Below, one piece after another: positions 3,579 to 17,212 of a stretch of 17,212 bases of DNA. The DNA is from a virus. A program made the translations under genes and the position numbers. Each line of letters opens with the position of its first letter. Position 1 is the stretch's first letter. The notes beneath the pieces are model-generated. The model saw only the letters and a program-made list of their open reading frames with translations, was not told the origin of the DNA and ran no database searches. The stretch lies in the UHGV virus genome UHGV-0185805; one strand, written 5' to 3'.

Positions 3579-3641
3579 TGATGTGTTTAGTATCACCGCC
3601 AGTGGTATTTATGTCAACACCGCTAGAGATAATTCATCACC
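3579..3641 (-). promoter_or_regulatory. Lambda-type OL1/OL2/OL3 operators with PL promoter (-10 GATACT at 3579-3584, -35 TTGACA at 3602-3607 on minus strand)
   Basis: OL1 TATCACCGCCAGTGGTA 3581-3597; OL2 CAACACCGCTAGAGATA 3605-3621; OL3 CATCACCGCAGATGGTT 3625-3641. 17-nt spacer between -35 and -10. Confidence 0.85.
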
Positions 3642-3802
3642 GCAGATGGTTATCTGTATGTTTTTTATATGAATTTATTTTTTGCAGGGGTGCATTGTTT
3701 GGTAGGTGAGAGATCTGAACTGCTATGTTTAGTGAGTTGTATCTATTTATTTTCAAATAGATACAATTGGTTATGTGTTCTTGGGTGAGGGGGATCGTGA
3801 GG

Positions 3803-3829
3803 CAAAGAAAACCCGGCTCTGTGGCCGGG
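3803..3829 (-). terminator. Rho-independent terminator at the end of the cI (PRM) operon, lambda t_imm-like
   Basis: Stem CCCGGC (3812-3817) / GCCGGG (3824-3829), 6-nt loop, followed on the minus strand by TTTTCTTTG; lies just after the stop of the ORF ending at 3838. Confidence 0.7.
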
Positions 3830-3837
3830 AATAACAT

Positions 3838-4216
3838 TTAGGAATCAAGGTCAGGTAGCATGATTTTCTCAATCAACGTCAATGCCCTTTGGTCTCGTTC
3901 AGCAAAATATTTAGGAGCGTACTGAGGCAGCCACACTTCGTTGAAGTATTGTTTGAAATCTGCAATATTCGTTTGGGTATAGACGTACCGGGAATGTCCG
4001 GCCATCTGGGTACTCATGGTTATATGTTGGGAATGTCTTCGGCTCAACCCCCCGGTTGTCACGGAGCCATTGCGAGAAAACCCTACCCTCTGAAATATCA
4101 GGGACCATTTTTTCTGGCAGCGTATATCCGGCCTGTTCAAGTGGCGCAACCAAGTTAAACGTCAGTTCATTAAGCATAGAAAAGTGCGTATGAGGAACTC
4201 TGCCTCGGTTTGTCAT
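3838..4216 (-). pseudogene. Hypothetical protein in the rexAB position, apparently disrupted by a -1 frameshift near 3985-4000 (ORF 3911-4216 carries the N-terminal part, ORF 3838-4149 the C-terminal part)
   Basis: Two overlapping minus-strand ORFs in different frames. 3911-4216 starts protein-like (MTNRGRVPHTHFSMLNELTFNLVAPLEQAGYTLPEKMVPDISEGRVFSQWLRDNRGVEPKTFPTYNHEYPDGR...) but ends Arg/Ser-rich. 3838-4149 starts junk-like but ends protein-like (...YVYTQTNIADFKQYFNEVWLPQYAPKYFAERDQRALTLIEKIMLPDLDS) right before the terminator. No family recognised. Confidence 0.45.
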
Positions 4217-4255
4217 ATACCGCTTAAGGTGGATAGGGAGTTCGGCAGGCGCTCT

Positions 4256-4597
4256 TTAACCTGACATCCACTCACGCACCCATCTCGATACTTGCACTGC
4301 AAATTTTGGAGATAGCCACTGAGCTAAATTAATTGCGATGTCTGGATGAACCCAAGTCCCTTGATTCTCTGCTCTTCCGCCTTTAAATGATTGAATTAAC
4401 TCCGATATGGGAATCCCCATATCGCGTGATAATTCATCAAAAAAATCTTGTGTTGTTTTTAGTCGTGTATAGTCAGCAAGTAGCTTCCCCGCAGACTTGC
4501 ACATCGCGGTGGCATTGATGTATCCGTCTTTGGTGCGAAGATGGATGACTTCTCCATCAACTTCTCTAGCGATTAATGCAAGTTGAAATTGTGTCAT
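4256..4597 (-). CDS. KilA-N domain protein (stand-alone, 113 aa) immediately downstream of cI
   Basis: ...DGYINATAMCKSAGKLLADYTRLKTTQDFFDEL...WVHPDIAINLAQWLSPKFAVQVSRWVREW fits the KilA-N/Bro-N signature as remembered. AGGA RBS 6 nt upstream of ATG; 31-nt gap after the cI stop. Confidence 0.75.
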   Translation of the reverse strand: MTQFQLALIAREVDGEVIHLRTKDGYINATAMCKSAGKLLADYTRLKTTQDFFDELSRDMGIPISELIQSFKGGRAENQGTWVHPDIAINLAQWLSPKFAVQVSRWVREWMSG

Positions 4598-4628: not shown

Positions 4629-5345
<717 letters not shown>

Positions 5346-5352
5346 TTAAATC

Positions 5353-5418
5353 TATCACCGCAAGGGATAAACTTCTAACACCGTGCGTGTTGACTATTTT
5401 ACCTCTAGCGGTGATAAT
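5353..5418. promoter_or_regulatory. Lambda-type OR3/OR2/OR1 operators with divergent PRM and PR promoters
   Basis: OR3 TATCACCGCAAGGGATA 5353-5369; OR2 TAACACCGTGCGTGTTG 5376-5392; OR1 TACCTCTAGCGGTGATA 5400-5416; PR -35 TTGACT 5390-5395 and -10 GATAAT 5413-5418; RBS TAAGGAGG before cro ATG at 5443. Confidence 0.9.
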
Positions 5419-5442: not shown

Positions 5443-5643
5443 ATGGAACAACGCATAACCCTGAAAGATTATGCAATACGCTTTGGGCAAACCAAGACGG
5501 CTAAAGATCTCGGCGTATATCAAAGCGCGATTAACAAGGCCATTCATGCAGGCCGAAAGATTTTTTTAACTATAAACGCTGATGGAAGCGTTTATGCGGA
5601 AGAAATAAAGCCCTTCCCAAGTAACAAAAAAACAACTGCATAA
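5443..5643 (+). CDS. cro: Cro repressor (lambda type, 66 aa)
   Basis: [66 protein letters not shown], two substitutions relative to lambda Cro as remembered. Confidence 0.95.
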
Positions 5644-5650
5644 GTAACAC

Positions 5651-5696
5651 CGCTCTTTTCACAATGGACATTCGTCCTACGTCGCTGACAAAGCGA
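5651..5696 (+). promoter_or_regulatory. nutR: boxA-like CGCTCTTTT (5651-5659) and P22-type boxB hairpin TCGCTGACAAAGCGA (5682-5696)
   Basis: Located between cro and the cII-like gene, where nutR sits in lambdoid phages. The boxB loop (GACAA) is the same type as nutL. A hairpin ATGCGT-TTCC-ACGCAT at 5727-5742 may be a tR1-like structure. Confidence 0.55.
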
Positions 5697-5780
5697 GCCC
5701 CAAGATATCTGACCAACTAAGGCCATATGCGTTTCCACGCATACCTTTCAACTAACTATTCACTATTGGAAAATTAACAA

Positions 5781-6077
5781 ATGACACAAGCAAGTTATAG
5801 CAAGCCAACACAGCGAGAAATTGATCGCGCTGAAACTGATTTACTCATCAACCTGTCAACGCTTACCCAGCGCGGTCTGGCAAAGATGATTGGCTGTCAT
5901 GAATCGAAGATAAGCAGAACGGACTGGAGGTTTATTGCTTCGGTCTTGTGTGCTTTCGGAATGGCATCAGACATCAGTCCGATTAGCAGGGCTTTTAAGT
6001 ATGCATTGGATGGAATCACAAAGAAAAAATCCCCGGCCGCCACCGAGGATTTTAAGCAAATTGATATGCAATTCTGA
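5781..6077 (+). CDS. cII: CII-like transcriptional activator (98 aa), diverged from lambda CII
   Basis: Position after cro/nutR; C-terminus KKKSPAATEDFKQIDMQF parallels lambda CII NKKRPAATERSEQIQMEF (from memory); central HTH-like segment ...GCHESKISR.... Confidence 0.7.
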   Translation: MTQASYSKPTQREIDRAETDLLINLSTLTQRGLAKMIGCHESKISRTDWRFIASVLCAFGMASDISPISRAFKYALDGITKKKSPAATEDFKQIDMQF

Positions 6078-6109
6078 GGTCATTACTGGATCAATCTACA
6101 GGAGTAATT

Positions 6110-6271
6110 ATGACAAAACGTCGTAAGAAATACCAGGAAAAAGAAGAGATTCGACACCCTGATTCACCTGAGGGATTAGTGGTAGCCGCAGCAAATAACA
6201 GGGCGTTCGCAGAGCGCCTTGTTGGTGTTTACAGACTAGCCAAAGTAGGAGTGAAACATGGGCGTCGTTAA
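6110..6271 (+). CDS. Small hypothetical basic protein (53 aa) with strong RBS, unknown function
   Basis: AGGAG 7 nt upstream of ATG at 6110; MTKRRKKYQEKEEIRHPDSPEGLVVAAANNRAFAERLVGVYRLAKVGVKHGRR; stop at 6269-6271, 1 nt from the converging Q fragment stop. Below the ORF-track length cutoff. Confidence 0.3.
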   Translation: MTKRRKKYQEKEEIRHPDSPEGLVVAAANNRAFAERLVGVYRLAKVGVKHGRR

Positions 6272-6272
6272 G

Positions 6273-6752
6273 TTAGCTGATTGCTGGCATTCTTGAATAG
6301 CCGACACCTTTGCATCTTCCGCACTCTTTCTCAACAACTCTCCCCCACTGCTCCGTTTTGGCTATATCAACCGCACGGCCTGTACCGTGGCAATCTCTGC
6401 ATCTTGCACCCGGCGTCGCGGCACTACGGCAATAATCCGCATAAGCGAATATTGCGAGCACTTGCAGTACCTTTGCCTTAGTATTTCCTTCGAGCTTTGC
6501 CACACCACGGTATTTCCCCGATACCTTGTGTGCAAATTGCATCAGATAGTTGATAGCCTTTTGTTTGTCGTTCTGGCTGAGTTCGTGCTTACCGCAAAAT
6601 GCAGCCATCCCGAATCCGGCCTGTGATTGTGCCATCCCCATAGCAGCCATCACATCAGTACCGGAAAGAGAGTCAGAAGCTGTAGCCCGTGGTGAGTCGC
6701 TAATCATCGGGCTTTTTGGCGAATGAAATTTAGCTACGCTTTCGAGTCTCAT
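6273..6752 (-). CDS. Q: Antitermination protein Q, lambda type, C-terminally truncated (159 of ~207 aa), inverted relative to PR
   Basis: MRLESVAKFHSPKSPMISDSPRATASDSLSGTDVMAAMGMAQSQAGFGMAAFCGKHELSQNDKQKAINYLMQFAHKVSGKYRG...CRDCHGTGRAV...CGRCKGVGYSRMP matches the lambda Q N-terminal region including the zinc-binding cysteines as remembered; the ORF then hits a stop where lambda Q continues. Confidence 0.8.
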   Translation of the reverse strand: MRLESVAKFHSPKSPMISDSPRATASDSLSGTDVMAAMGMAQSQAGFGMAAFCGKHELSQNDKQKAINYLMQFAHKVSGKYRGVAKLEGNTKAKVLQVLAIFAYADYCRSAATPGARCRDCHGTGRAVDIAKTEQWGRVVEKECGRCKGVGYSRMPAIS

Positions 6753-7800
6753 GCGCCTTCTCCCTGTAATCGACCAGAATCATGCCAACACATCCTTTTT
6801 CTCGCTTGATTCGACGACTTTCGCTGACGATTTGAGCCAGAGATAATCCCGGCGTGTCGTCGATGTAAAGCAGGTCGATTTCACTCAAGCGATTGGCTGT
6901 TTCGATCGCCCTGTTGAAGTCACCATCGTAATCACCCTGATAGCCGTCATCAGCGTCATTTGTCGCCGGAAGGTAAAAAATATTCGGGTTAACACCAGAC
7001 TTCTGCCCTACCAGTTTTTCCAGTATCTGGTCACCTGGCATTTCAAGGCTGAACATCAGAGCGGGCTTTTTCTCATGCACTGCGCAGTTGATTGCCATCT
7101 GGCTGTATAGCGTCGTTTTCCCCATCTTAGGGCGAGCGCCAATGACAAACAGAGAGCCTTTCACCAGACCTTTCGGTGACAGCATCCTGTCCAGCGATGG
7201 GATCCCTGTGCTCATTCCTCGTTGTTCGCCTGACGGGTCAAATCGCTTCTCAAGGTCGCTAACCCAGTCTTCCATGACCTCACCAAATGAACGAAGGCCG
7301 CGACGCGATCCGGTTTTTGCATGGTCTGTCAGTTGCGTGAAAATCGACTGAATAGCTTCGTACTTCTGCGTTGCAGTCATTCCGTTGCGGGAATAGAGCA
7401 ATTCCGTCGCTTCAGTCATACGGTTGATGGCGTAGCGTTCCATTGCGGTTTCACGAACCTGCATTGCATAGGCAACGATGTTTGCTGCGCTTGGCGTGTT
7501 CTTTGCGATCTCAGCGATATAAGCAAAACCGCCAACAGACACAGTTAACGATTTACGCTCCAGTTCATCGAAAAGCGTCAGGCCATCTACTGGCTTTTGC
7601 TCCCGGTGCATTCTGGTTATTTCTTCGAAAAGGATTTTGTGTGGCCGGCTGTAAAATGAATCAGGCTTCAGCATCGCCAGAACCTTCTGGACGCGCTCAC
7701 TGCTGTCATCATCCAGAAGCAATCCACCAATCACCGCCTGCTCTGCCTCGATGCTATGGGGCGGCGCATAAAAATTATCGGTCATCGTGTTCACCCTCAC
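6730..7800 (-). CDS. DnaB-family replicative helicase (P22 gp12-like), C-terminally truncated at ~356 aa and abutting the Q start
   Basis: N-terminal DnaB signature SIEAEQAVIGGLLLD and Walker A GARPKMGKTT present; ORF ends ...GMILVDYREKAHETRKRS* just after the helicase motif where DnaB proteins normally continue ~100 aa; its stop overlaps the Q ATG. Confidence 0.75.
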   Translation of the reverse strand: MRVNTMTDNFYAPPHSIEAEQAVIGGLLLDDDSSERVQKVLAMLKPDSFYSRPHKILFEEITRMHREQKPVDGLTLFDELERKSLTVSVGGFAYIAEIAKNTPSAANIVAYAMQVRETAMERYAINRMTEATELLYSRNGMTATQKYEAIQSIFTQLTDHAKTGSRRGLRSFGEVMEDWVSDLEKRFDPSGEQRGMSTGIPSLDRMLSPKGLVKGSLFVIGARPKMGKTTLYSQMAINCAVHEKKPALMFSLEMPGDQILEKLVGQKSGVNPNIFYLPATNDADDGYQGDYDGDFNRAIETANRLSEIDLLYIDDTPGLSLAQIVSESRRIKREKGCVGMILVDYREKAHETRKRS

Positions 7801-8293
7801 GAACTTTCAGGTAGGTATTATCGTTAAGCAGGAAATCAAATCCCTTTTTGTGCCAGACAGTTCCGCGTTGATGGTTTGGACGCTCTTCGAACATCCATCG
7901 GCAATTTTCGCCTACGTAGCTCAAATAATTTCTCCAGTCCTGCATCGTGAACCCATGCCCGTCAAGCTGGCGGGTTATCACTCCGGCTTTGCGCCAGAAC
8001 GTTCGGATCTGGTTTTTACGCTTGTCATTCAGTGCGCGGATTCTTGGCGCTTCAGGAAGGATTTCGTGGTAAGCATCGACAACATCCTGACAGCTGACGG
8101 AAGGTTTTTTCTTGTCAGACTTTTTGTCTGCTGTAGCACTCTCTAATACGTCAGTATTAGAGATATTATTTATATTATTGTTTATGGACAACCGTTGGAC
8201 AATTTTTTGCCTGAAAATCGTCATATTTAACGATTGTAAACAGGCTAAATTTCTTCCCCATCGAGCAAATATTAAGCATACCTTTCGACTCAA
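7775..8293 (-). CDS. Replication initiator (O-like) linker and C-terminal part, in a different frame from the upstream N-terminal ORF (frameshifted single gene or two genes)
   Basis: ORF spans the AT-rich palindromic ori-like DNA (translated as ...SINNNINNISNTDVLES...) and ends overlapping the helicase start, as O-type genes do. Confidence 0.45.
   Translation of the reverse strand: MSRKVCLIFARWGRNLACLQSLNMTIFRQKIVQRLSINNNINNISNTDVLESATADKKSDKKKPSVSCQDVVDAYHEILPEAPRIRALNDKRKNQIRTFWRKAGVITRQLDGHGFTMQDWRNYLSYVGENCRWMFEERPNHQRGTVWHKKGFDFLLNDNTYLKVREGEHDDR
8140..8163. repeat. Perfect 10-bp inverted repeat TCTCTAATAC-gtca-GTATTAGAGA flanked by AT-rich DNA; candidate origin element inside the O-like gene
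   Basis: Read directly from the sequence; followed by tattatttatattattgtttat (8164-8186) and a second palindrome AATCGT-n8-ACGATT near 8214-8233. Confidence 0.4.
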
Positions 8294-8525
8294 AAGTCCG
8301 TAATAAGCTCCGAACTTTGTTGTCGGGGATGAATGTTTCTCTGACCAGCGACGGGCGTCCAGTTATCATCTGACCGCGATCAACAGTTATCGGACCGATA
8401 TCCGTATTGACGACAGTAGATTCGTGATTAGCCTTGAGGATTAAGTGAAGCCAAAGATGTACTGCCTGAGAGTCCTTATAGAGCCTGCTGTCCATAAACT
8501 GGCGGTGTATAGAGACATACCCCAT
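8175..8525 (-). CDS. Replication initiator (O-like / P22 gp18-like) N-terminal DNA-binding part
   Basis: MGYVSIHRQFMDSRLYKDSQAVHLWLHLILKANHES... resembles phage replisome-organiser N-terminal domains; directly upstream (same strand) of the helicase. Overlaps the next ORF 8175-8293 in another frame. Confidence 0.55.
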   Translation of the reverse strand: MGYVSIHRQFMDSRLYKDSQAVHLWLHLILKANHESTVVNTDIGPITVDRGQMITGRPSLVRETFIPDNKVRSLLRTFESKGMLNICSMGKKFSLFTIVKYDDFQAKNCPTVVHKQ

Positions 8526-8560
8526 ACTGGATGCCTCCTGATGTTGTACAGGGTTATGCC

Positions 8561-8869
8561 TGTAAACTCAAATCAACAGCCGCCGGACGTTACCAGCTTC
8601 TTTCCCGTTGGTGGGATGCCTACCGTAAGCAGCTTGGACTGAAAGACTTCTCTCCGAAAAGCCAGGACGCTGTGGCACTGCAGCAGATTAAAGAGCGTGG
8701 CGCTTTACCGATGATTGATCGCGGTGATATCCGTCAGGCTATCGACCGTTGCAGTAATATCTGGGCTTCACTGCCGGGCGCTGGTTATGGTCAGTTCGAG
8801 CATAAGGCTGACAGCCTGATTGCAAAATTCAAAGAAGCAGGCGGAACGGTCAGAGAGGTTGAGGTATGA
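8561..8869 (+). pseudogene. R: Endolysin R fragment (lambda-type transglycosylase, C-terminal ~100 codons only)
   Basis: ...[100 protein letters not shown] matches the lambda R C-terminal half as remembered. The N-terminal catalytic part and the holin gene are absent; the ATG at 8531 lies in junction DNA. Confidence 0.85.
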
Positions 8870-10443
8870 GCAAAGTCACCGCGATTATCTCCGCTCTGGT
8901 TATCTGCATCATCGTCTGCCTGTCATGGGCGGTCAATCATTACCGTGATAATGCCATCGCCTACAAAGAGCAGCGTGATAAAAAAGTCAGTGAGCTGAAG
9001 CAGGCGACTGCCACCATTACTGACATGCAGCAGCGCCAGCGTGATGCTGATGCACTCGATGCTAAATACACGAAGGAGTTAGCTGATGCGAAAGCTGAAA
9101 ATGATGCTCTTCGGCGCAAGCTTGATAATGGTGGCAGGGTGCTCGTCAAAGGAAAATGCCCTGTGCCATCCTCAGCCGAAACCTCCAGCGCCTCCGGCAT
9201 GGGCAATGATGCCACCGTCGAACTCTCTCCAGTTGCTGGACGAAACGTTCTCAGTATCAGATCTGGAAATCCAGCGTTTGTTGCACAGGCACAACAGGCG
9301 TTTTCCGGTCTTAATGAGCAGCAACGCAACGATATGGGCGATTTAGCCATGAGGGCTAACGTCGCTCTTTCTCAGGGACCGGAAGCCTACAGTAAATTCA
9401 TTACTGACAACAAGGACAGGTTAAATCGTGTGGGGGCTAATGCTGACTGGATGATTCAGACAGGTATCCAGAATCCAGAGCAGCTATCACACATGCTGAC
9501 TACTATGTCTCTCGGTGCACTTGGGCCAGAAAAGGCGTTTGCTGTTCAGGACAAGATAGCTGGTCGTGAGATTGACCGAGGCAGACTGGCAGAGACAATC
9601 CGCAGCAATCAGGCCAGCGAAGCACTTCAGGCGAGAGGGCAGGATATTAGCCGAGCAAATGCGTTAACGTCAGCATATGCACCAACAGCCGCAATGCAGA
9701 ATTACAATCAGTACGCGCAAATGTTAAAGGCGGATCCAGATGGTGCAGCGGCATTTGCGGCAGCGGCGGGAATTAATCCCAATGCTAAGAAATTACTTAA
9801 GGTTGAAACCAATCCTGATGGCTCGGTAACTAAGTATTACACCGATGGCAGCGAGGAAGCCGGAAAACTAAACCAACCTATATCTGGTGATGGCATTAAA
9901 CCAATTAGTTTGCCACAAGCGCAAAGCATCATAGATAAGGCTAATGAGGGTTCCAAGAAGGCGGCAGGATTTGCTTTGCGATTAAAAGATTCAATGGACT
10001 CAATGAATCAGCTTAGTAAAAGCATTGACCCTAAGCGAGTTGCATTAATAAATCGCTCTCTTGGTGATGGGACTATTGCAAATTTAAGCCTATCACCAGC
10101 GGAGCAGCAATATATGGTAAATGCGAGAGACGCCTTGTATGCAATTTTGCGCCCAGAAACAGGTGCAGCAATTACTCTGCCAGAGATGCAGGAGTATTCC
10201 AAAATGTACCTGCCTCAGCCTGGTGATTCCAAGGCTGCTACTGAAACAAAAATGCGAAAAATGCAGGGCCAATATAACTCATTACGTGGTCAGTCTGGTC
10301 GCGTTTATGATGCTTTGGTGGTTTCAAGTGTTGCAAATAGTCAACAACAGAGCAATAGCCAACAACCGACAAATACCCAACAGCAGCAGAGTCAATCCGG
10401 ATCATATACCTCAAAATCAGGCATTCAATTTACGGTGGAATGA
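8866..10443 (+). CDS. Chimeric ORF: Rz-like spanin 5' part (about first 125-135 codons) fused in frame to the C-terminal ~390 codons of a probable P22 gp20-type ejection protein
   Basis: N-terminus [31 protein letters not shown]...[16 protein letters not shown] matches lambda Rz and overlaps the R stop as in lambda; an Rz1-like lipoprotein ORF is embedded in the +1 frame. The remainder is Ala/Gln-rich and overlaps (ATGATGA) the start of the gp16-like gene. The gp20 assignment is by position, not by remembered sequence. Confidence 0.6.
9086..9346 (+). CDS. Rz1-like outer-membrane lipoprotein spanin embedded in Rz frame +1 (native end probably near 9275; 3' part may be junction-derived)
   Basis: [19 protein letters not shown] (signal peptide plus lipobox) followed by proline-rich [11 protein letters not shown], as in lambda Rz1. 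Confidence 0.5.
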
Positions 10444-12281
10444 TGAAAGTAACTGCAAACGGTAAGACATTTACCTTCCCTGATGGTACGAGCACGGAAG
10501 ATATTGGCACCGCCATTGATGAGTATTTTGCTGGTCAGGCTGTTCAGCAACAAACAGTTAATCAGGCCAATAATGAACCAGCACGTGAAGAACCATCATT
10601 GATGCAACAAGCTGGCGATTGGCTCACAGGTGGTCAAAGTGCAGGGCAAATTGCAGAGCAGGCTGGTCGTGGTCTGGTAAACATACCATTTGACGTATTG
10701 CAGGGCGGCGCAAGTCTGATTAATGCAATCAGTCAGGGGCTTGGTGGACCCAAGGTTTTGGATGATGTTTATCGTCCAGTAGACAGACCGACAGACCCAT
10801 ACGCACAAGCCGGTGAAACAATTGGTGGGTATTTAGTTCCAGGAGTTGGAACGGCAGGAAGCATGGCTATTGGATCACTGGCAGAGGCCGCAAATCAGAA
10901 AGGCGATTTCGCACAAAATGCAGCTAAAAATGCCGGAGTTAACCTTGCCGCTCAGGGGGTTCTTTCCGCAGCAGCAAAGGGAATAGGGCGTGGAATAACG
11001 GCTATAAAAGGTGATATTGCGCCAGAAGTGGCGAAGAAAATTGCCACATCAGAATCGATGGGCGTGACACCAATGACATCTGATGTTATCCCGCCGAAAA
11101 ATGCTTTCACTCGCGGCCTTACTCAGGATGCCGAGGGGGCTTTGCTCGGGACAGGCTCAAAGCGAGCGGAGCAATATGCAACGCGTAGTAAGTTGGTAAG
11201 TAATTATTTTGACCGTTTTGGTGAGTACAACCCGGATGATGTGGTGAAATCTCTGACCACCACGTTAAGGGGACGGAAGGATGCCGCTGGCGCTGTTATC
11301 AATGACGTCACCAATAAAATGGGGAATGCCGCAGTTGATACCACAAACACTATGAATGCTCTGAATACAGCGATCGCAAGACAGGAACGGCTTGGGACGT
11401 CTGCCAATCAAAGCCTGCTTACATCCTTGCGTAACCTACGCGAAGAATTAGCAAACCCTGCAACTGATTTGGATGTTACGTTTGATCTCTTGCGTCAGCA
11501 CAGAACAGCATTTAGATCTAATGTTCAGGGAGATGCTATGGTCTTCCCCAACCAGGCAAAAGCAGCTACCAATATGGTAGAGAATGCAATGTCAAAAGAC
11601 CTTCGTAACGCAGTTGCTAAAAACCTCGGTGCATCAGACGCAGCAAAATACCTTAAAGCAAATTCAGATTATGCAAACGTTTATAATAAGGTGCTTAATA
11701 AAAACATTGCTAACAAGCTCAACAAGGCAAGCAGTGAAGCCAGTCCTGAACTTATAAATACCGTTGTATTAAGCAGAAAACCATCTGACGTGAAACGAAT
11801 CTGGAGCGCATTGGATGATAAAGGGAAAGATGCTATGCGTGCAGCTTACGTCAGCAAAATAGCGGAAAAGGCCGGTGACTCTCCAGCCAAGTTCATCACT
11901 GAAGTTAATAAGCTTAAATCTCAGTCAGGCGGTGAAATTTACAACACTATTTTTTCTGGAAAGCACATGAAAGAGCTCGATGCTCTTCATGAAGTTCTAC
12001 AGCAAACAGCAAGGTCAGACACCGCAAATGTAGTAACTCAGACGGGGCAATCACAAGCCAACAGGATAAGGACGATTGGCGCAACTGCGACTCTTGGAGT
12101 ATCAATGGGGCTTGAGGCTGGTTTTGGTGCAATGATGCGTTTGTATGAGTCCAAAGCAGCAAGGAATGCGCTCTTACGTCTGGCAAACACTAAAGCTGGA
12201 ACGCCAGCTTATGAAAGAGCGCTAAATCAGGCTGCTACTGCCGTGCGCCCGCTCTTAGCTAACGAAGCGACCCGGCAGTAG
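10440..12281 (+). CDS. Probable DNA-ejection (internal virion) protein, P22 gp16-like (613 aa)
   Basis: Size close to P22 gp16 as remembered (~609 aa), Ala/Gly-rich, follows the gp20-like ORF with overlapping start and precedes the sieA-position / mnt-arc-ant / tailspike block as in the P22 map. Assigned by synteny; no search run. Confidence 0.6.
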
Positions 12282-14100: not shown

Positions 14101-14169
14101 AGTTGAAGCCCCAACTGCGGGAACAGTCAGGGCTTCGATATCGTAAAACCACGCATAGGAATTAACGAC

Positions 14170-15093
14170 ATGAAAAGTATAGCAACAGCAGTATCTACTA
14201 TCAATGTACCATTCCACGGCGCAGAGCTTTATGTTGTCAATCACAACGGTGAGCCGTACACCCCAATGAAACCTATCGTTGAGGGAATGGGTATGGATTG
14301 GGCTTCACAGTTTACAAAGTTAAAACAAAGATTTGCTAAAGGAATTGTGGAAATCGCAATACCTTCAGTTGGCGGTGTGCAGACCATGATTTGCCTTGCT
14401 TTACGTAAACTGAATGGCTGGTTGCAAACCATCAGCCCTAACAAAGTCCGCCCTGAAATCCGCGACAATGTAATCCAGTATCAAGAAGAGTGTGACGATG
14501 TGCTATACGAGTACTGGACTAAAGGCCATGTAGTTAACCCACGCAAAGCTAAAAAAGCGTTGCCGGGTAAAATCACCACTGAACAGCAGGAAGCCATTAA
14601 ACAACTCGTCATGAGTCGCGGTCAGTCTCTGCCAAAAGAAAAACAGGCTAAGGCGATGATCACCATGTGGTCGTCACTAAAATCCCATTTTGGATGTTCG
14701 TACAAAGAAATCAGTGAGGAGCAGTTTACCGAAGCACTATCACTTGCAGCTCGAGTTCCACTTGAAGGTGAGTTCATTGGCAAACAAGAGAAGAAAACCA
14801 ACGAGCTTTCTGCAAAAGAAGCAAACAGCCTTGTATGGTTATGGGATTATGCCAACCGTTCGCAGGCATTATTCCGCGAACTGTATCCGGCGCTAAAACA
14901 AATTCAATCGAACTATTCCGGCAGATGCTACGACTACGGTCATAAGTTCTCGTATGTTATCGGAATGGCGAGAGACGTTTTAATAAACCACACACGAGAT
15001 GTTGATATTAATGAGCCAGACGGACCAACGAATCTTTCCGCATGGATGAGACTTAAGAATAAAGAATTACCTCCTTCAGTACATAACTACTGA
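14170..15093 (+). CDS. ant: Antirepressor Ant (P22 immI type, 307 aa)
   Basis: Follows arc after a 69-nt spacer with an AGGA RBS and is followed by a terminator and the tailspike, exactly the P22 mnt-arc-ant-gene 9 synteny; size matches Ant (~300 aa). Confidence 0.7.
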
Positions 15094-15193: not shown

Positions 15194-17212
15194 ATGACAG
15201 ACATTACAGCTAATGTTGTAGTGAGCATGCCTTCGCAACTCTTCACTATGGCTCGTTCTTTTAAAGCTGTAGCCAATGGCAAAATTTATATCGGTAAAAT
15301 TGACACTGACCCGGTAAATCCTGAAAACCAGATTCAGGTTTATGTGGAGAACGAAGACGGATCTCACGTTCCTGTTTCGCAACCAATCATCATTAACGCT
15401 GCTGGATATCCGGTATATAACGGACAGATTGCCAAATTCGTTACCGTGCAAGGCCATTCTATGGCTGTTTATGATGCATATGGTGCTAAGCAGTTCTATT
15501 TTCCGAATGTGCTGAAGTATGACCCTGATCAATTAAGAGAGGAATTATCTAGTAAAGGTGGTTTTAATTTAGTTGGTGAGTTGGGTGCTGTATCTGATTT
15601 TTATGGAATGGAATCTAATAATGGAGATAAGGTTTTACTAAAGTCATGGTATCGAGATGGAAGTGGTGGTGGTGGTATTTTTGAGTTTAATGACAGCATA
15701 ATAAGGTCGAAGCATGACGGAGGGTGTATAATATCACCATCAGTTCCATATATTGGAGATGCATATGTATCAGACTATGTAAACGGAGTTGGAGATGAAC
15801 ATCCATCATCAAACGGTTGTTGGGTTAGAAGAGACATCAAAGAAATCACAGGTGAAATGTATGGTATGCATGGAAATCCTGATGATAACTTGGACTTATC
15901 ACCAAATCTAAGGAAGGCCATTTCAGCCGCCGGAGTTCTTGGGCTTGGGGTCGTTTTACCAGGCAATATTATAAATTTAAAATCACCAGTATCAATACCA
16001 ATACACCAGAGAGAAGGTGGAAAAGTAGCTTATATAAGAGGTGTTGACGAAAAGTTATCAATAGTAAATATACTAGCTTCAGAAACTTCGCAGAATAATT
16101 TCGGGATTTATCTTGATGGCTCTCTTTCAGTATTTTCATCATTCCCCATAGAAAACCTCACTATCAGATCTGTAGATTCAAGTGCCAATAGATCTGACTG
16201 GTCAGGATTTGGATTAAATATAAACAAATGCATCAGGCTTTCAATGAGGAATGTTCTGATAGATGGCTTTGAGATTGGGTGTAAACTGAAAGATTCATTA
16301 TATCTTGAGTTTAACAATTGTAGATTTACTTATAACAAAACAGCAATACAAGGAAGACTTGGTGAAGTGTCAGGACCAAACTCAATAAGACTTTCACGCT
16401 GTGATTTTCAGTACAATGCTGAATTTTGTATCGAAAACCAACACGCACACGCTTGGAAAATTGACACTTGTACGTTTGAAGCAAATGGAGGGAAATCATA
16501 TTCCAACGGGACCCCAATTGCATTTAATTCGTGCGTACAGTTTGCGTTGATTGGTGGTGCAGGTCGTGTCGCAGCAACAATTGATAATTGCTATTTCGAA
16601 TCAAATACTGGTTCTGATGTGAGTTTTTACATAAACAGAAACTTAAATCAAATTATTAACATAAATAATTCAATATTTAACTATAATTTAGATTCCGTTA
16701 GCGCATCTAGAGTTATAGTACAGTCAAATCAATCAGATCTCAGTTCTGGTGTTCAATGTTATTTGAATATGATGGGAAATGGTTTTCTTAACACTGGTGC
16801 TTCTGCTGAATCTGCATTTAAAGAAGTGCAATTTGTCGTCCCTTCATCTTTTGGTGTTAGCCATCTTGTTTTTACAGACTTTGGCAACCAAAATTCAATG
16901 AAATCACCATATTCTGGATTGGAAAAAGTTCAGAGAAATAGCCAAGGGTTGGTATCTGCAAGAGCAAATATTTCATCTACAGGTGCTTATTCATTAGCTC
17001 AGAACATATCAAATGTATCTAGACTGCCATCAGGAACATATAAGATAGATTTTACATTTAACGTTTCAACACTCGTTCCAAATATTACATTGTTTGGAGG
17101 ATCTGGTAGATATTCAAGTTTCTCAAGGGATTCAGACTATTCAATTACGGTTAAGACATTTAATAATACAGGTGCCAATGTTGATTTGGATTTTATTATT
17201 ACAGTAATGTAA
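15194..17212 (+). CDS. Tailspike protein: P22 gp9-type N-terminal head-binding domain (~115 aa) fused to a divergent AT-rich beta-helix receptor-binding domain (672 aa total)
   Basis: [60 protein letters not shown]...[31 protein letters not shown] matches the P22 tailspike N-terminus as remembered; homology and GC content drop after about codon 115 (near 15540). The remainder is rich in N/S/G/I repeats typical of right-handed beta-helix polysaccharide-binding or depolymerase domains. Stop at 17210-17212. Confidence 0.85.

Follow-up and report, generated by a model that had tools for sequence, protein, structure and literature searches.

Gene content of the locus

The DNA analysed here, referred to below as the window, is the entire 17,212-nt stretch of virus genome UHGV-0185805. 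It very probably represents a P22-like prophage in an advanced state of decay, with lambda immunity, that has become fixed beside ybhC in a lineage of E. coli; the host flank on the ybhC side shows 99.75% identity to E. coli. The immunity region has the features of a lambdoid prophage, with cI (PF00717 and PF01381), Cro, CII and a PR-like site all present. The putative PR promoter is of the lambda type (TTGACT-17-GATAAT; 10/12 consensus match) and lies on the plus strand at 5390-5418, between lambda-like cI and cro. Both cro (5443-5643; PF09048, E = 8e-34) and the CII-family gene (5781-6077; PF05269, E = 2e-33) are intact and in their usual rightward orientation on the plus strand. A plus-strand ORF of 53 aa is found at 6110-6271 (phrog_1331, E = 2e-37). 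In intact phages (L001, L002, L007, HK75 and others), this ORF is immediately upstream of the O-like replication initiator gene, rep, and overlaps it by 14 nt.

Three genes on the minus strand make up the block of interest, and each of them is damaged. The antiterminator gene Q, of the P22 gp23 type (6273-6752; PF03589, E = 6e-39), retains 157 of 207 codons, followed by two foreign codons and a stop; its identity to Q of L001 is 96.9%. The DnaB-like helicase gene (6730 to about 7785-7800) retains 340 of 478 codons and carries a foreign tail of 11 codons. Although the helicase is 99.4% identical to that of L002 and PF00772 is complete, PF03796 is matched only at profile positions 1-141 of 255, i.e. 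the ATPase domain has lost its second half and there is no complete RecA-like C-terminal domain. The O-like initiator gene (7775-8525), whose intact homologue matches phrog_345 ('replication initiation O-like', E = 1e-85), is frameshifted and now appears as two ORFs, 8175-8525 and 7775-8293. Its 5' leader and ribosome-binding site, corresponding to rep nucleotides 26-63 of the annotated long form, lie at 8526-8563, also on the minus strand.

To the right of the block, the reading direction returns to the plus strand. A chimeric lysozyme ORF (8531-8869; phrog_90 endolysin, E = 4e-43) begins with ∼11 codons that run antisense to the leader of rep and continues with lysozyme residues ∼58-158. Residues 1-57 of the intact enzyme are thus missing, a segment that presumably holds the residue equivalent to the catalytic Glu of lambda R. 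Next to it is an Rz-gp20 fusion gene (8866-10443), in which Rz (PF03245, residues 29-142) is in frame with C-terminal sequence from an injection protein resembling P22 gp20 (PF16928, residues 130-262, profile positions 85-217). This fusion is the product of a separate large deletion that removed packaging and head genes. Other marks of a defective prophage include an integrase truncated to 154 aa (356 aa in L007), missing morphogenesis genes, pseudogenes and the chromosomal flank. Immunity and exclusion genes, namely cI and SieA, have been kept. The only Rfam match in a scan of the whole window, sar RNA at 14101-14168, has no connection with the minus-strand block.

The replication-Q block is reversed relative to its flanks

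In intact relatives of the element (L001, L002 and L007), the replication and Q genes are collinear with the rest of the early-right operon, giving the rightward order cro, cII, initiator, helicase, nin, Q, lysis. The window departs from this order. By BLAST against these relatives, window positions 6042-6290 align in one orientation (L001 11524-11276), positions 6281-6763, 6766-8202 and 8185-8565 align in the opposite orientation with 96.9-99.7% identity, and positions 8564-9095 are back in the first. Hence a segment of ∼2.3 kb (∼6283-8563) is reversed with respect to cI-cro-cII on the left and the lysis genes on the right. Chance is ruled out as the source of this reversed match, which extends over ∼2.3 kb at 98.3-99.7% identity on the strand opposite to that of the flanks.

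An earlier note, made from the sequence of the window, had described the O-like initiator, DnaB-like helicase and Q genes as reading on the minus strand, convergent with cro and cII, and had proposed an inversion or deletion endpoint. The gene coordinates agree with this description, the 53-aa ORF being convergent with the block as well, and the opposite alignment of 6281-8565 and its flanks bears out a secondary inversion. The 1-nt gap that was noticed between the stop of Q (6273-6275) and that of the 53-aa ORF (6269-6271) is also there. The note took this pair of stop codons to mark the endpoint; the inversion stands, but the left junction is really at 6281-6282. Similarly, the helicase ORF does end inside Q, with an overlap of 23 nt (6730-6752), and the nin genes are missing between the two, a deletion having taken the last 138 helicase codons along with the entire nin region. 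What had been called a fusion of helicase to Q is a juxtaposition created by this deletion, not a translational fusion. Finally, the note held that the block is cut off from PR and that Q is unable to act. Our analysis supports this, as Q is without its last 50 codons and the downstream target region is absent.

Three junctions define the rearrangement. At the left inversion junction (J1, 6281-6282), rep nucleotide 25 abuts Q nucleotide ∼472 in reverse complement, with a microhomology of TT. Alignment to rep of L001 reveals what this join left behind, an orphan stub comprising the first 25 nt of rep in its original, plus-strand orientation (6258-6282), and the last two codons and stop of Q are antisense to this stub. 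At the deletion junction (J2, 6766-6768; mapped by alignment with L002 and L014), helicase nucleotide 1020 meets the 3' end of a ninI-like gene that immediately precedes Q, with a microhomology of GTA. At the right inversion junction (J3, 8564-8565), ∼40 nt past the rep ATG at 8525, the reverse complement of rep nucleotides 24-26 is joined to lysozyme nucleotide ∼171, with a microhomology of AA. All of the junctions thus connect phage sequence directly to phage sequence through 2-3 nt of microhomology.

The break in rep is reciprocal, with nucleotides 1-25 on the left, nucleotides 24/26 onward on the right, and no loss. On the other side of the block, the intact relatives have a region downstream of Q (PR'/qut, holin and the 5' end of the lysozyme gene; ∼1.06 kb in L001) for which BLAST found no counterpart in the window. 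The window therefore has neither a full-length Q (∼207 aa) nor the late promoter and qut that would follow it, and its O-like gene is separated from its promoter.

Could the layout be the native order of an unusual phage with a leftward replication module? Phage genomes are mosaic, and divergent replication modules occur in some temperate phages. However, rep is split between the two strands, Q lacks 50 codons and the lysozyme gene 57, in each case at a junction. Because all three genes are truncated in this way, the arrangement cannot be a native one. The head genes and most of the integrase gene are missing as well, and the left junction is absent from a phage collection of 50,697 records. 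We consider a native order to have practically no chance of being correct.

The inversion is inherited in multiple strains

L003, L004 and L005 have the junction too, and exact matches to the truncated and chimeric proteins are numerous. The truncated Q protein, identical in sequence, was found in 125 blocks of the collection (79 contigs), and the chimeric lysozyme in 318 blocks (185 contigs); E. coli SCD1 and contigs of 5.2-5.3 Mb are among the carriers. Copies are at least 99.78% identical, and all aligned segments are at least 99.95% identical except one segment of L029 (99.78%, with indels). More than 20 loci were fetched, and in every one the block has the same orientation.

These copies speak to the possibility that an assembler set the block backwards. 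In favor of such an artefact, the arrangement is missing from 5,426 complete RefSeq E. coli genomes, in which none of the three junctions was found. Against it, identical junctions come from independent ENA, JGI and NCBI projects and assemblers, in contigs as long as 5.3 Mb, and the junctions contain no repeats able to mislead an assembler. Moreover, the copies differ from one another in SNPs and indels and must, for that reason, derive from different strains. An assembly artefact is effectively refuted on these grounds, and we assign it a vanishingly small likelihood. The inversion is real and inherited. Thus, neither of the outcomes by which the earlier note said its reading could fail has materialized: the junctions recur in many independent assemblies, some of them the size of a chromosome, and the inverted layout is absent from the phage records and from the complete E. 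coli genomes. A search of a collection of species-representative genomes for the junction patterns gave no match, as expected of a strain-level feature. Neither a non-inverted ancestor nor an intermediate came to light in the complete E. coli genomes, searched for the three junctions, or in the phage collection, searched for the left one.

Comparison of the copies also orders the events. The origin lies within rep as an array of GGACAACCGTT iterons, of which a remnant is found at 8185-8202, the site of a 77-nt deletion between two iteron clusters; this deletion is the frameshift that interrupts the initiator ORF of the window. Both clusters are still present in L004 and other copies, and L004 and many others have an intact rep ORF of 275 aa despite the inversion (the ORF is intact in L018 too). 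The inversion preceded the iteron deletion. Other copies differ by iteron changes of +11, -11 or -77 nt, or by an additional frameshift in the helicase gene. The length of the origin iterons was altered at least three times after the inversion, with rep frameshifted each time, and neutral decay of the block probably continued once it had been flipped.

Signals at the block and its breakpoints

Certain bacterial DNA segments are inverted in a programmed fashion by a Hin/Gin/Pin-type recombinase or a phage integrase. Cryptic prophages of E. coli have switches of this sort, an example being PinQ (PMC12529663). Several observations weigh against such a switch here. The microhomology amounts to just 2 nt, and no inverted repeats pairing 6270-6290 with 8555-8570 were found, short pairs being at chance level. 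The nearest inverted pair, I13, is 13 nt long and 85% complementary, with one arm 50 nt off the left junction. Short inverted repeats, which the earlier note had suggested looking for at the block ends, do not flank the junctions. No serine recombinase or invertase gene was found among the ORFs of the window that were searched or the called genes of the sister loci, and the integrase is truncated. In addition, every recovered copy has the same orientation, and DNA was lost at one junction, whereas conservative recombination loses none. We therefore regard a programmed invertible segment as exceedingly improbable.

Another way to invert DNA is via insertion sequences, either by intramolecular transposition with later loss of the IS or by recombination of two IS copies in inverted orientation. 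IS elements are frequent in related remnants (e.g. ISSen4 in L006), and exact re-use of a breakpoint is typical of IS-adjacent deletions. Yet none of the junctions, in any copy, has an IS, the end of one or a longer target duplication, and scarless loss of two IS copies is itself very unlikely. An IS-made inversion has, in our estimation, only a slim probability.

A third scenario is that the block is a piece of a second, oppositely oriented prophage that was inserted or recombined into the first. Similar lambdoid prophages occur several to an E. coli genome (median of 2 places per genome), and identity to the references is 94-97.6% for the flank as against 98.3-99.7% for the block. On the other hand, a single cut in rep yields halves that abut to the nucleotide, as predicted by an intramolecular flip and not by an insertion, and the junctions are non-homologous. 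A foreign origin is thus highly improbable.

In a scan for promoters and terminators, counts did not exceed those of shuffled sequences (4 promoter-like sites versus 5.0 expected), and no convincing leftward promoter was identified for the inverted block. Folding of single-stranded DNA at the four parental breakpoints gave z-scores of -1.45 to +1.35, which leaves hairpin-driven breakage unsupported. A small quasi-palindrome surrounds the break in rep; it is not significant.

A proposed history of the remnant

The parental operon would have contained, from left to right, cro, cII, the 53-aa ORF, O-like rep, the DnaB-like helicase gene, nin genes, Q, PR'/qut, holin, lysozyme and Rz. We propose that illegitimate recombination, guided by microhomology only, broke rep after nucleotide 25, reversed the segment from rep nucleotide 26 to Q nucleotide ∼472, and discarded the ∼1.06 kb between Q nucleotide ∼472 and lysozyme nucleotide ∼171. 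A further deletion would account for the loss of the 3' third of the helicase gene and the nin region. The flip most likely formed in a single multi-break, template-switch or end-joining event. While the manner of formation is proposed, the anatomy of the locus, its junctions and their inheritance across assemblies are documented directly by the alignments and copies.

Q and the helicase are broken, as is the initiator of this copy, and the late promoter is gone. With its integrase truncated and its head genes lost as well, the element is predicted to be incapable of replication, lysis or excision. We infer that the block is now functionless and silent; transcripts from PR would traverse it in the antisense direction.

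Overall, we interpret the locus as a case of ordinary prophage decay. One observation is not predicted by purely random breakage. In sister copies L019 and L022, a deletion between cro and the helicase gene has its endpoint no more than 3 nt from the older helicase junction. Helicase nucleotide ∼1020 thereby takes part both in the ninI|helicase join seen in most copies and in the cro|helicase join of these two. A non-random origin can be imagined in two versions, which even jointly we deem unlikely. In the first, a defined break or MMBIR-like replication restart at rep nucleotide 25/26, beside the origin, may have made all junctions together, and the shared helicase position could mark a sequence-specific fragile site in the replication module. 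In the second, the flip may have been selected because it turned, in one step, an inducible prophage into a safe immunity/exclusion island (cI, SieA), with PR perhaps now driving antisense RNA across the replication genes.

Relation to known prophages and inversions

The cryptic lambdoid remnants of E. coli K-12 include DLP12, Rac and Qin. Like such prophages, the element in the window has decayed by deletion, frameshift and truncation, has kept immunity and exclusion genes, and is a vertically inherited chromosomal island. Its closest counterparts are P22-like/lambdoid PR operons in prophages of E. coli W46, 2018-05-5CC and ETEC1716, the last also located at the ybhC site; in P22 terms, the O-like, DnaB-like and Q genes correspond to genes 18, 12 and 23. 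These operons share with the window the same genes (95-99.7% nucleotide identity), the overlap between the 53-aa ORF and rep, and an 11-bp iteron origin inside rep. They differ in that the window has the rep-to-Q segment reversed and is without nin, PR'/qut, holin and parts of four genes.

Defects described for the pool of defective prophages of O157 Sakai are frameshifts, deletions and IS insertions (PMC2669165); a small internal inversion with non-homologous junctions, as seen here, is a less commonly described lesion. Large chromosomal inversions mediated by prophages have been reported in E. coli O157 (PMC9997748). Both they and the inversion studied here involve prophage DNA, but ours spans 2.3 kb within one prophage, has 2-nt microhomology and was accompanied by sequence loss. 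The P segments of Pin/PinQ (PMC12529663) likewise flip within a dead prophage; the window, by contrast, has no crossover repeats or recombinase gene, a single orientation, and truncated genes. The literature searched deals in general terms with the decay of prophages and the inversions they mediate, and no description of this particular remnant was found in it.

While the importance of the locus for biology at large is limited, it is a well-resolved case of prophage disablement, with junctions defined at the base level. In practice it serves as a caution. A dead remnant has been deposited among viral genomes, as a 'Caudoviricetes sp.' MAG and in IMG/VR, and its chimeric ORFs carry the annotations 'antitermination protein' and 'phage endolysin'. 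The later decay, i.e. iteron slippage, an additional frameshift and an additional deletion, provides an internal clock, and the sister copies may constitute a small natural experiment in illegitimate recombination and iteron instability in E. coli.

Inversion of the replication-Q block

In the prophages of E. coli W46 (L001), 2018-05-5CC (L002) and ETEC1716 (L007), which are intact or less damaged, genes run collinearly on a single strand in their canonical order: cro, cII, 53-aa ORF, rep, helicase, nin genes, Q, holin, lysozyme and Rz. The window was compared with these relatives by BLAST. Against L001, window positions 6042–6290 aligned in one orientation (11524–11276, 94.4% identity). Q (6281–6763) aligned in the other (8001–8482, 96.9%), as did helicase plus rep (6766–8202; 9409–10845, 98.3%) and rep (8185–8565; 10905–11285, 99.7%), and the first orientation resumed at lysozyme plus Rz (8564–9095; 6937–6427, 87.6%). 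For 6766–8202, identity to L002 was 99.4%. Hence, the block aligns opposite to both flanks and is inverted relative to the PR side. The earlier note had read it in this way, with the helicase next to Q and an inversion or deletion endpoint; that interpretation is correct, although its coordinates need small shifts, to 6281–6282 and 8564–8565. In L001, an inserted HNH endonuclease gene (11542–11970) separates cII from the 53-aa ORF; the window and L002 lack it.

Junctions and their possible origin

Base-level alignment to the relatives defined three junctions. At J1 (6281–6282), rep nucleotides 1–25 abut Q at nucleotide ∼472 in reverse complement, with microhomology TT. At J2 (6766–6768), helicase nucleotide 1020 meets the 3′ end of a ninI-like gene that lies immediately upstream of Q, with microhomology GTA. 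At J3 (8564–8565), the reverse complement of rep from nucleotides 24–26 is joined to lysozyme nucleotide ∼171, with microhomology AA. The rep gene was cut once, without loss at the break. Between Q and lysozyme, L001 has a stretch of ∼1.06 kb that is missing from the window; it comprises the Q 3′ end, the PR′/qut region, a small ORF, the holin gene and 57 codons at the start of lysozyme. These data show that an inversion-deletion with three breakpoints and 2-nt microhomologies took place, in addition to a deletion with a 3-nt microhomology.

Inverted repeats pairing the two block ends, for which the earlier note suggested a check, were not found. The base-level alignments of J1–J3 contained no IS sequence, and no invertase gene was found among the ORFs and called genes searched in the window and in sister loci carrying the inverted layout. 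Promoter-like sites were not above chance (4 found versus 5.0 expected), and the DNA around the four parental breakpoints showed unremarkable folding.

We give slightly less than even weight to a single complex event behind the rearrangement. Two steps would be less economical than such an event, because the rep break is exactly reciprocal while the partner side lost ∼1 kb, and because a two-step route needs a later deletion ending exactly on a junction. A break at rep nucleotides 25/26 could have been followed by microhomology-primed template switching, and a template ending at the rep break itself would account for the reciprocity. Alternative end-joining after two breaks is another possible route.

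Damage to genes and probable functional consequences

The ORFs described in the earlier note are present with the identities it gave, and its 23-nt helicase/Q overlap and 1-nt gap between two stop codons are both exact. Truncated Q (Q′; 6273–6752, minus strand; PF03589 match) retains 157 of 207 codons and ends with two codons and a stop antisense to the rep stub. The helicase (6730–7800, minus strand; PF00772 match and partial PF03796 match) retains 340 of 478 codons, followed by an 11-codon tail, with Pfam DnaB_C matched at profile positions 1–141 of 255 only. The initiator gene rep (7775–8525, minus strand), whose intact L002 homologue matches phrog_345 'replication initiation O-like' (E 1e-85), keeps its ribosome-binding site and ATG at 8525; it has lost PR, and is frameshifted as well by a 77-nt deletion between two groups of 11-bp iterons (GGACAACCGTT) that presumably form the origin. 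Lysozyme lacks its first 57 residues, the stretch that holds the catalytic Glu of lambda R, and what remains belongs to a chimeric ORF of 112 aa beginning in the antisense rep leader.

After cI cleavage, PR transcription would cross the block antisense and continue through the lysozyme fragment to the Rz-gp20 fusion gene. We infer an inert block, with neither replication nor late transcription nor lysis possible.

Order of events and breakpoint re-use

Many sister loci (L004, L008, L010, L012, L013, L016, L018, L020 and others) have the inversion but keep the 275-aa rep ORF intact; therefore, the 77-nt deletion came after the inversion. The iteron array (window 8140–8202; ∼3560–3700 in L018, L019 and L021) is length-unstable among otherwise near-identical copies, with changes of −77, +11 (L021/L030) and −11 nt (L019/L022). 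All of these break the rep reading frame, which fits a silent rep under no selection. L008/L015 carry a helicase frameshift.

A further deletion in L019/L022 (2171–2173; window 5534 to 6767) brings cro nucleotide 92 right up against the inverted helicase and ends within 0–3 nt of J2, the older helicase-ninI junction, so the same helicase position occurs in two different junctions. By a rough estimate, for a coincidence noticed post hoc, the chance of this is a few per thousand, and the helicase breakpoint may be a hot spot. An independent prophage at the same ybhC site in ETEC1716, in normal orientation, also has a deletion (L007 9336–9892), which starts inside the helicase gene, after ∼345 nt, and extends to a partial ninI-like phosphatase gene beside Q. 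Deletions from helicase to nin thus recur in these prophages.

Distribution and comparison with known elements

The inverted layout is inherited and is not a misassembly. The 26-mer spanning J1 occurs in a metagenome contig (L003) and two IMG/VR contigs (L004, L005). The exact Q′ protein was found on 79 contigs and in 125 collection blocks, the exact chimeric lysozyme on 185 contigs and in 318 blocks, and the truncated helicase in 308 blocks. Among the carriers are E. coli SCD1 and, from NCBI, assemblies that have 5.2- and 5.3-Mb contigs, sizes that would imply long-read or finished assemblies. Every locus fetched has the same layout, with at least 99.78% identity; aligned segments are all at least 99.95% identical except in L029 (a 99.78% segment, also with indels). 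J1–J3 are all missing from 5,426 complete RefSeq E. coli genomes; the 50,697 phage records lack J1, and J1 and J3 patterns had no match among species-representative genomes. The arrangement therefore marks one E. coli lineage rather than a phage genome type. Database entries for the remnant include a 'Caudoviricetes sp.' MAG and IMG/VR viral genomes (DAT36809.1, DAT36815.1; IMGVR_UViG_2579778919_000009, IMGVR_UViG_3300029076_000063), and databases name its chimeric ORFs 'antitermination protein' and 'phage endolysin'.

The element is a defective lambdoid/P22-like prophage, of the same kind as the K-12 cryptic prophages. It also resembles in kind the defective prophage pool of O157 (PMC2669165). 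Its inversion differs from prophage-mediated large chromosomal inversions (PMC9997748) in size and in its non-homologous junctions, and from Pin-type switches (PMC12529663) in its lack of crossover sites and, among the ORFs and called genes searched, of a recombinase gene. The significance is modest: this is a well-resolved new example of a kind of genome decay already known.

Remainder of the prophage

Window 1–1966 matches the ybhC-integrase region of E. coli ETEC1716 at 99.75% identity, and the sequence beyond is a P22-like prophage with lambda-type immunity. A 154-aa integrase fragment (1365–1966; 356 aa in L007) is joined to the Gp157 and RecT genes, which follow it in the left part of the prophage, where an N-like gene also lies. 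Next come cI (4629–5342, minus strand), a PR-like site (5390–5418), and, on the plus strand, cro (5443–5643), a CII-family gene (5781–6077) and the 53-aa ORF (6110–6271). After the block and the lysozyme fragment, an in-frame fusion links Rz with the C-terminal portion of a P22 gp20-like injection protein (8866–10443, plus strand; PF03245 at residues 29–142, PF16928 profile positions 85–217). The fusion junction lies near 9256–9292 and reflects a single deletion, which took out the entire packaging, head and tail-accessory region. Since the integrase is truncated and both xis and the ea region are gone, the element is unable to excise; together, the integrase truncation and the Rz-gp20 fusion show it to be a grounded, headless remnant.

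To the right of the block lie gp16, sieA and the immI region with sar RNA and ant. The sar antisense RNA (14101–14168, minus strand; RF00262, 81.8 bits) adjoins ant (14170–15093) and appears intact. The tailspike gene, in the right part, extends beyond the window end; in its distal part (15500–17212) G+C drops to 35–38%, consistent with a horizontally exchanged receptor-binding module. Just downstream of cI, a bstA-like abortive-infection gene lies in pieces (3637–4597, minus strand), of which 4256–4597 matches positions 6–121 and 3911–4216 positions 164–253 of phrog_6287 (304 positions). It resembles a pseudogenized defence gene; in sister loci, a 55-aa product with a weak BstA_C match maps to approximately window 3838–4005.
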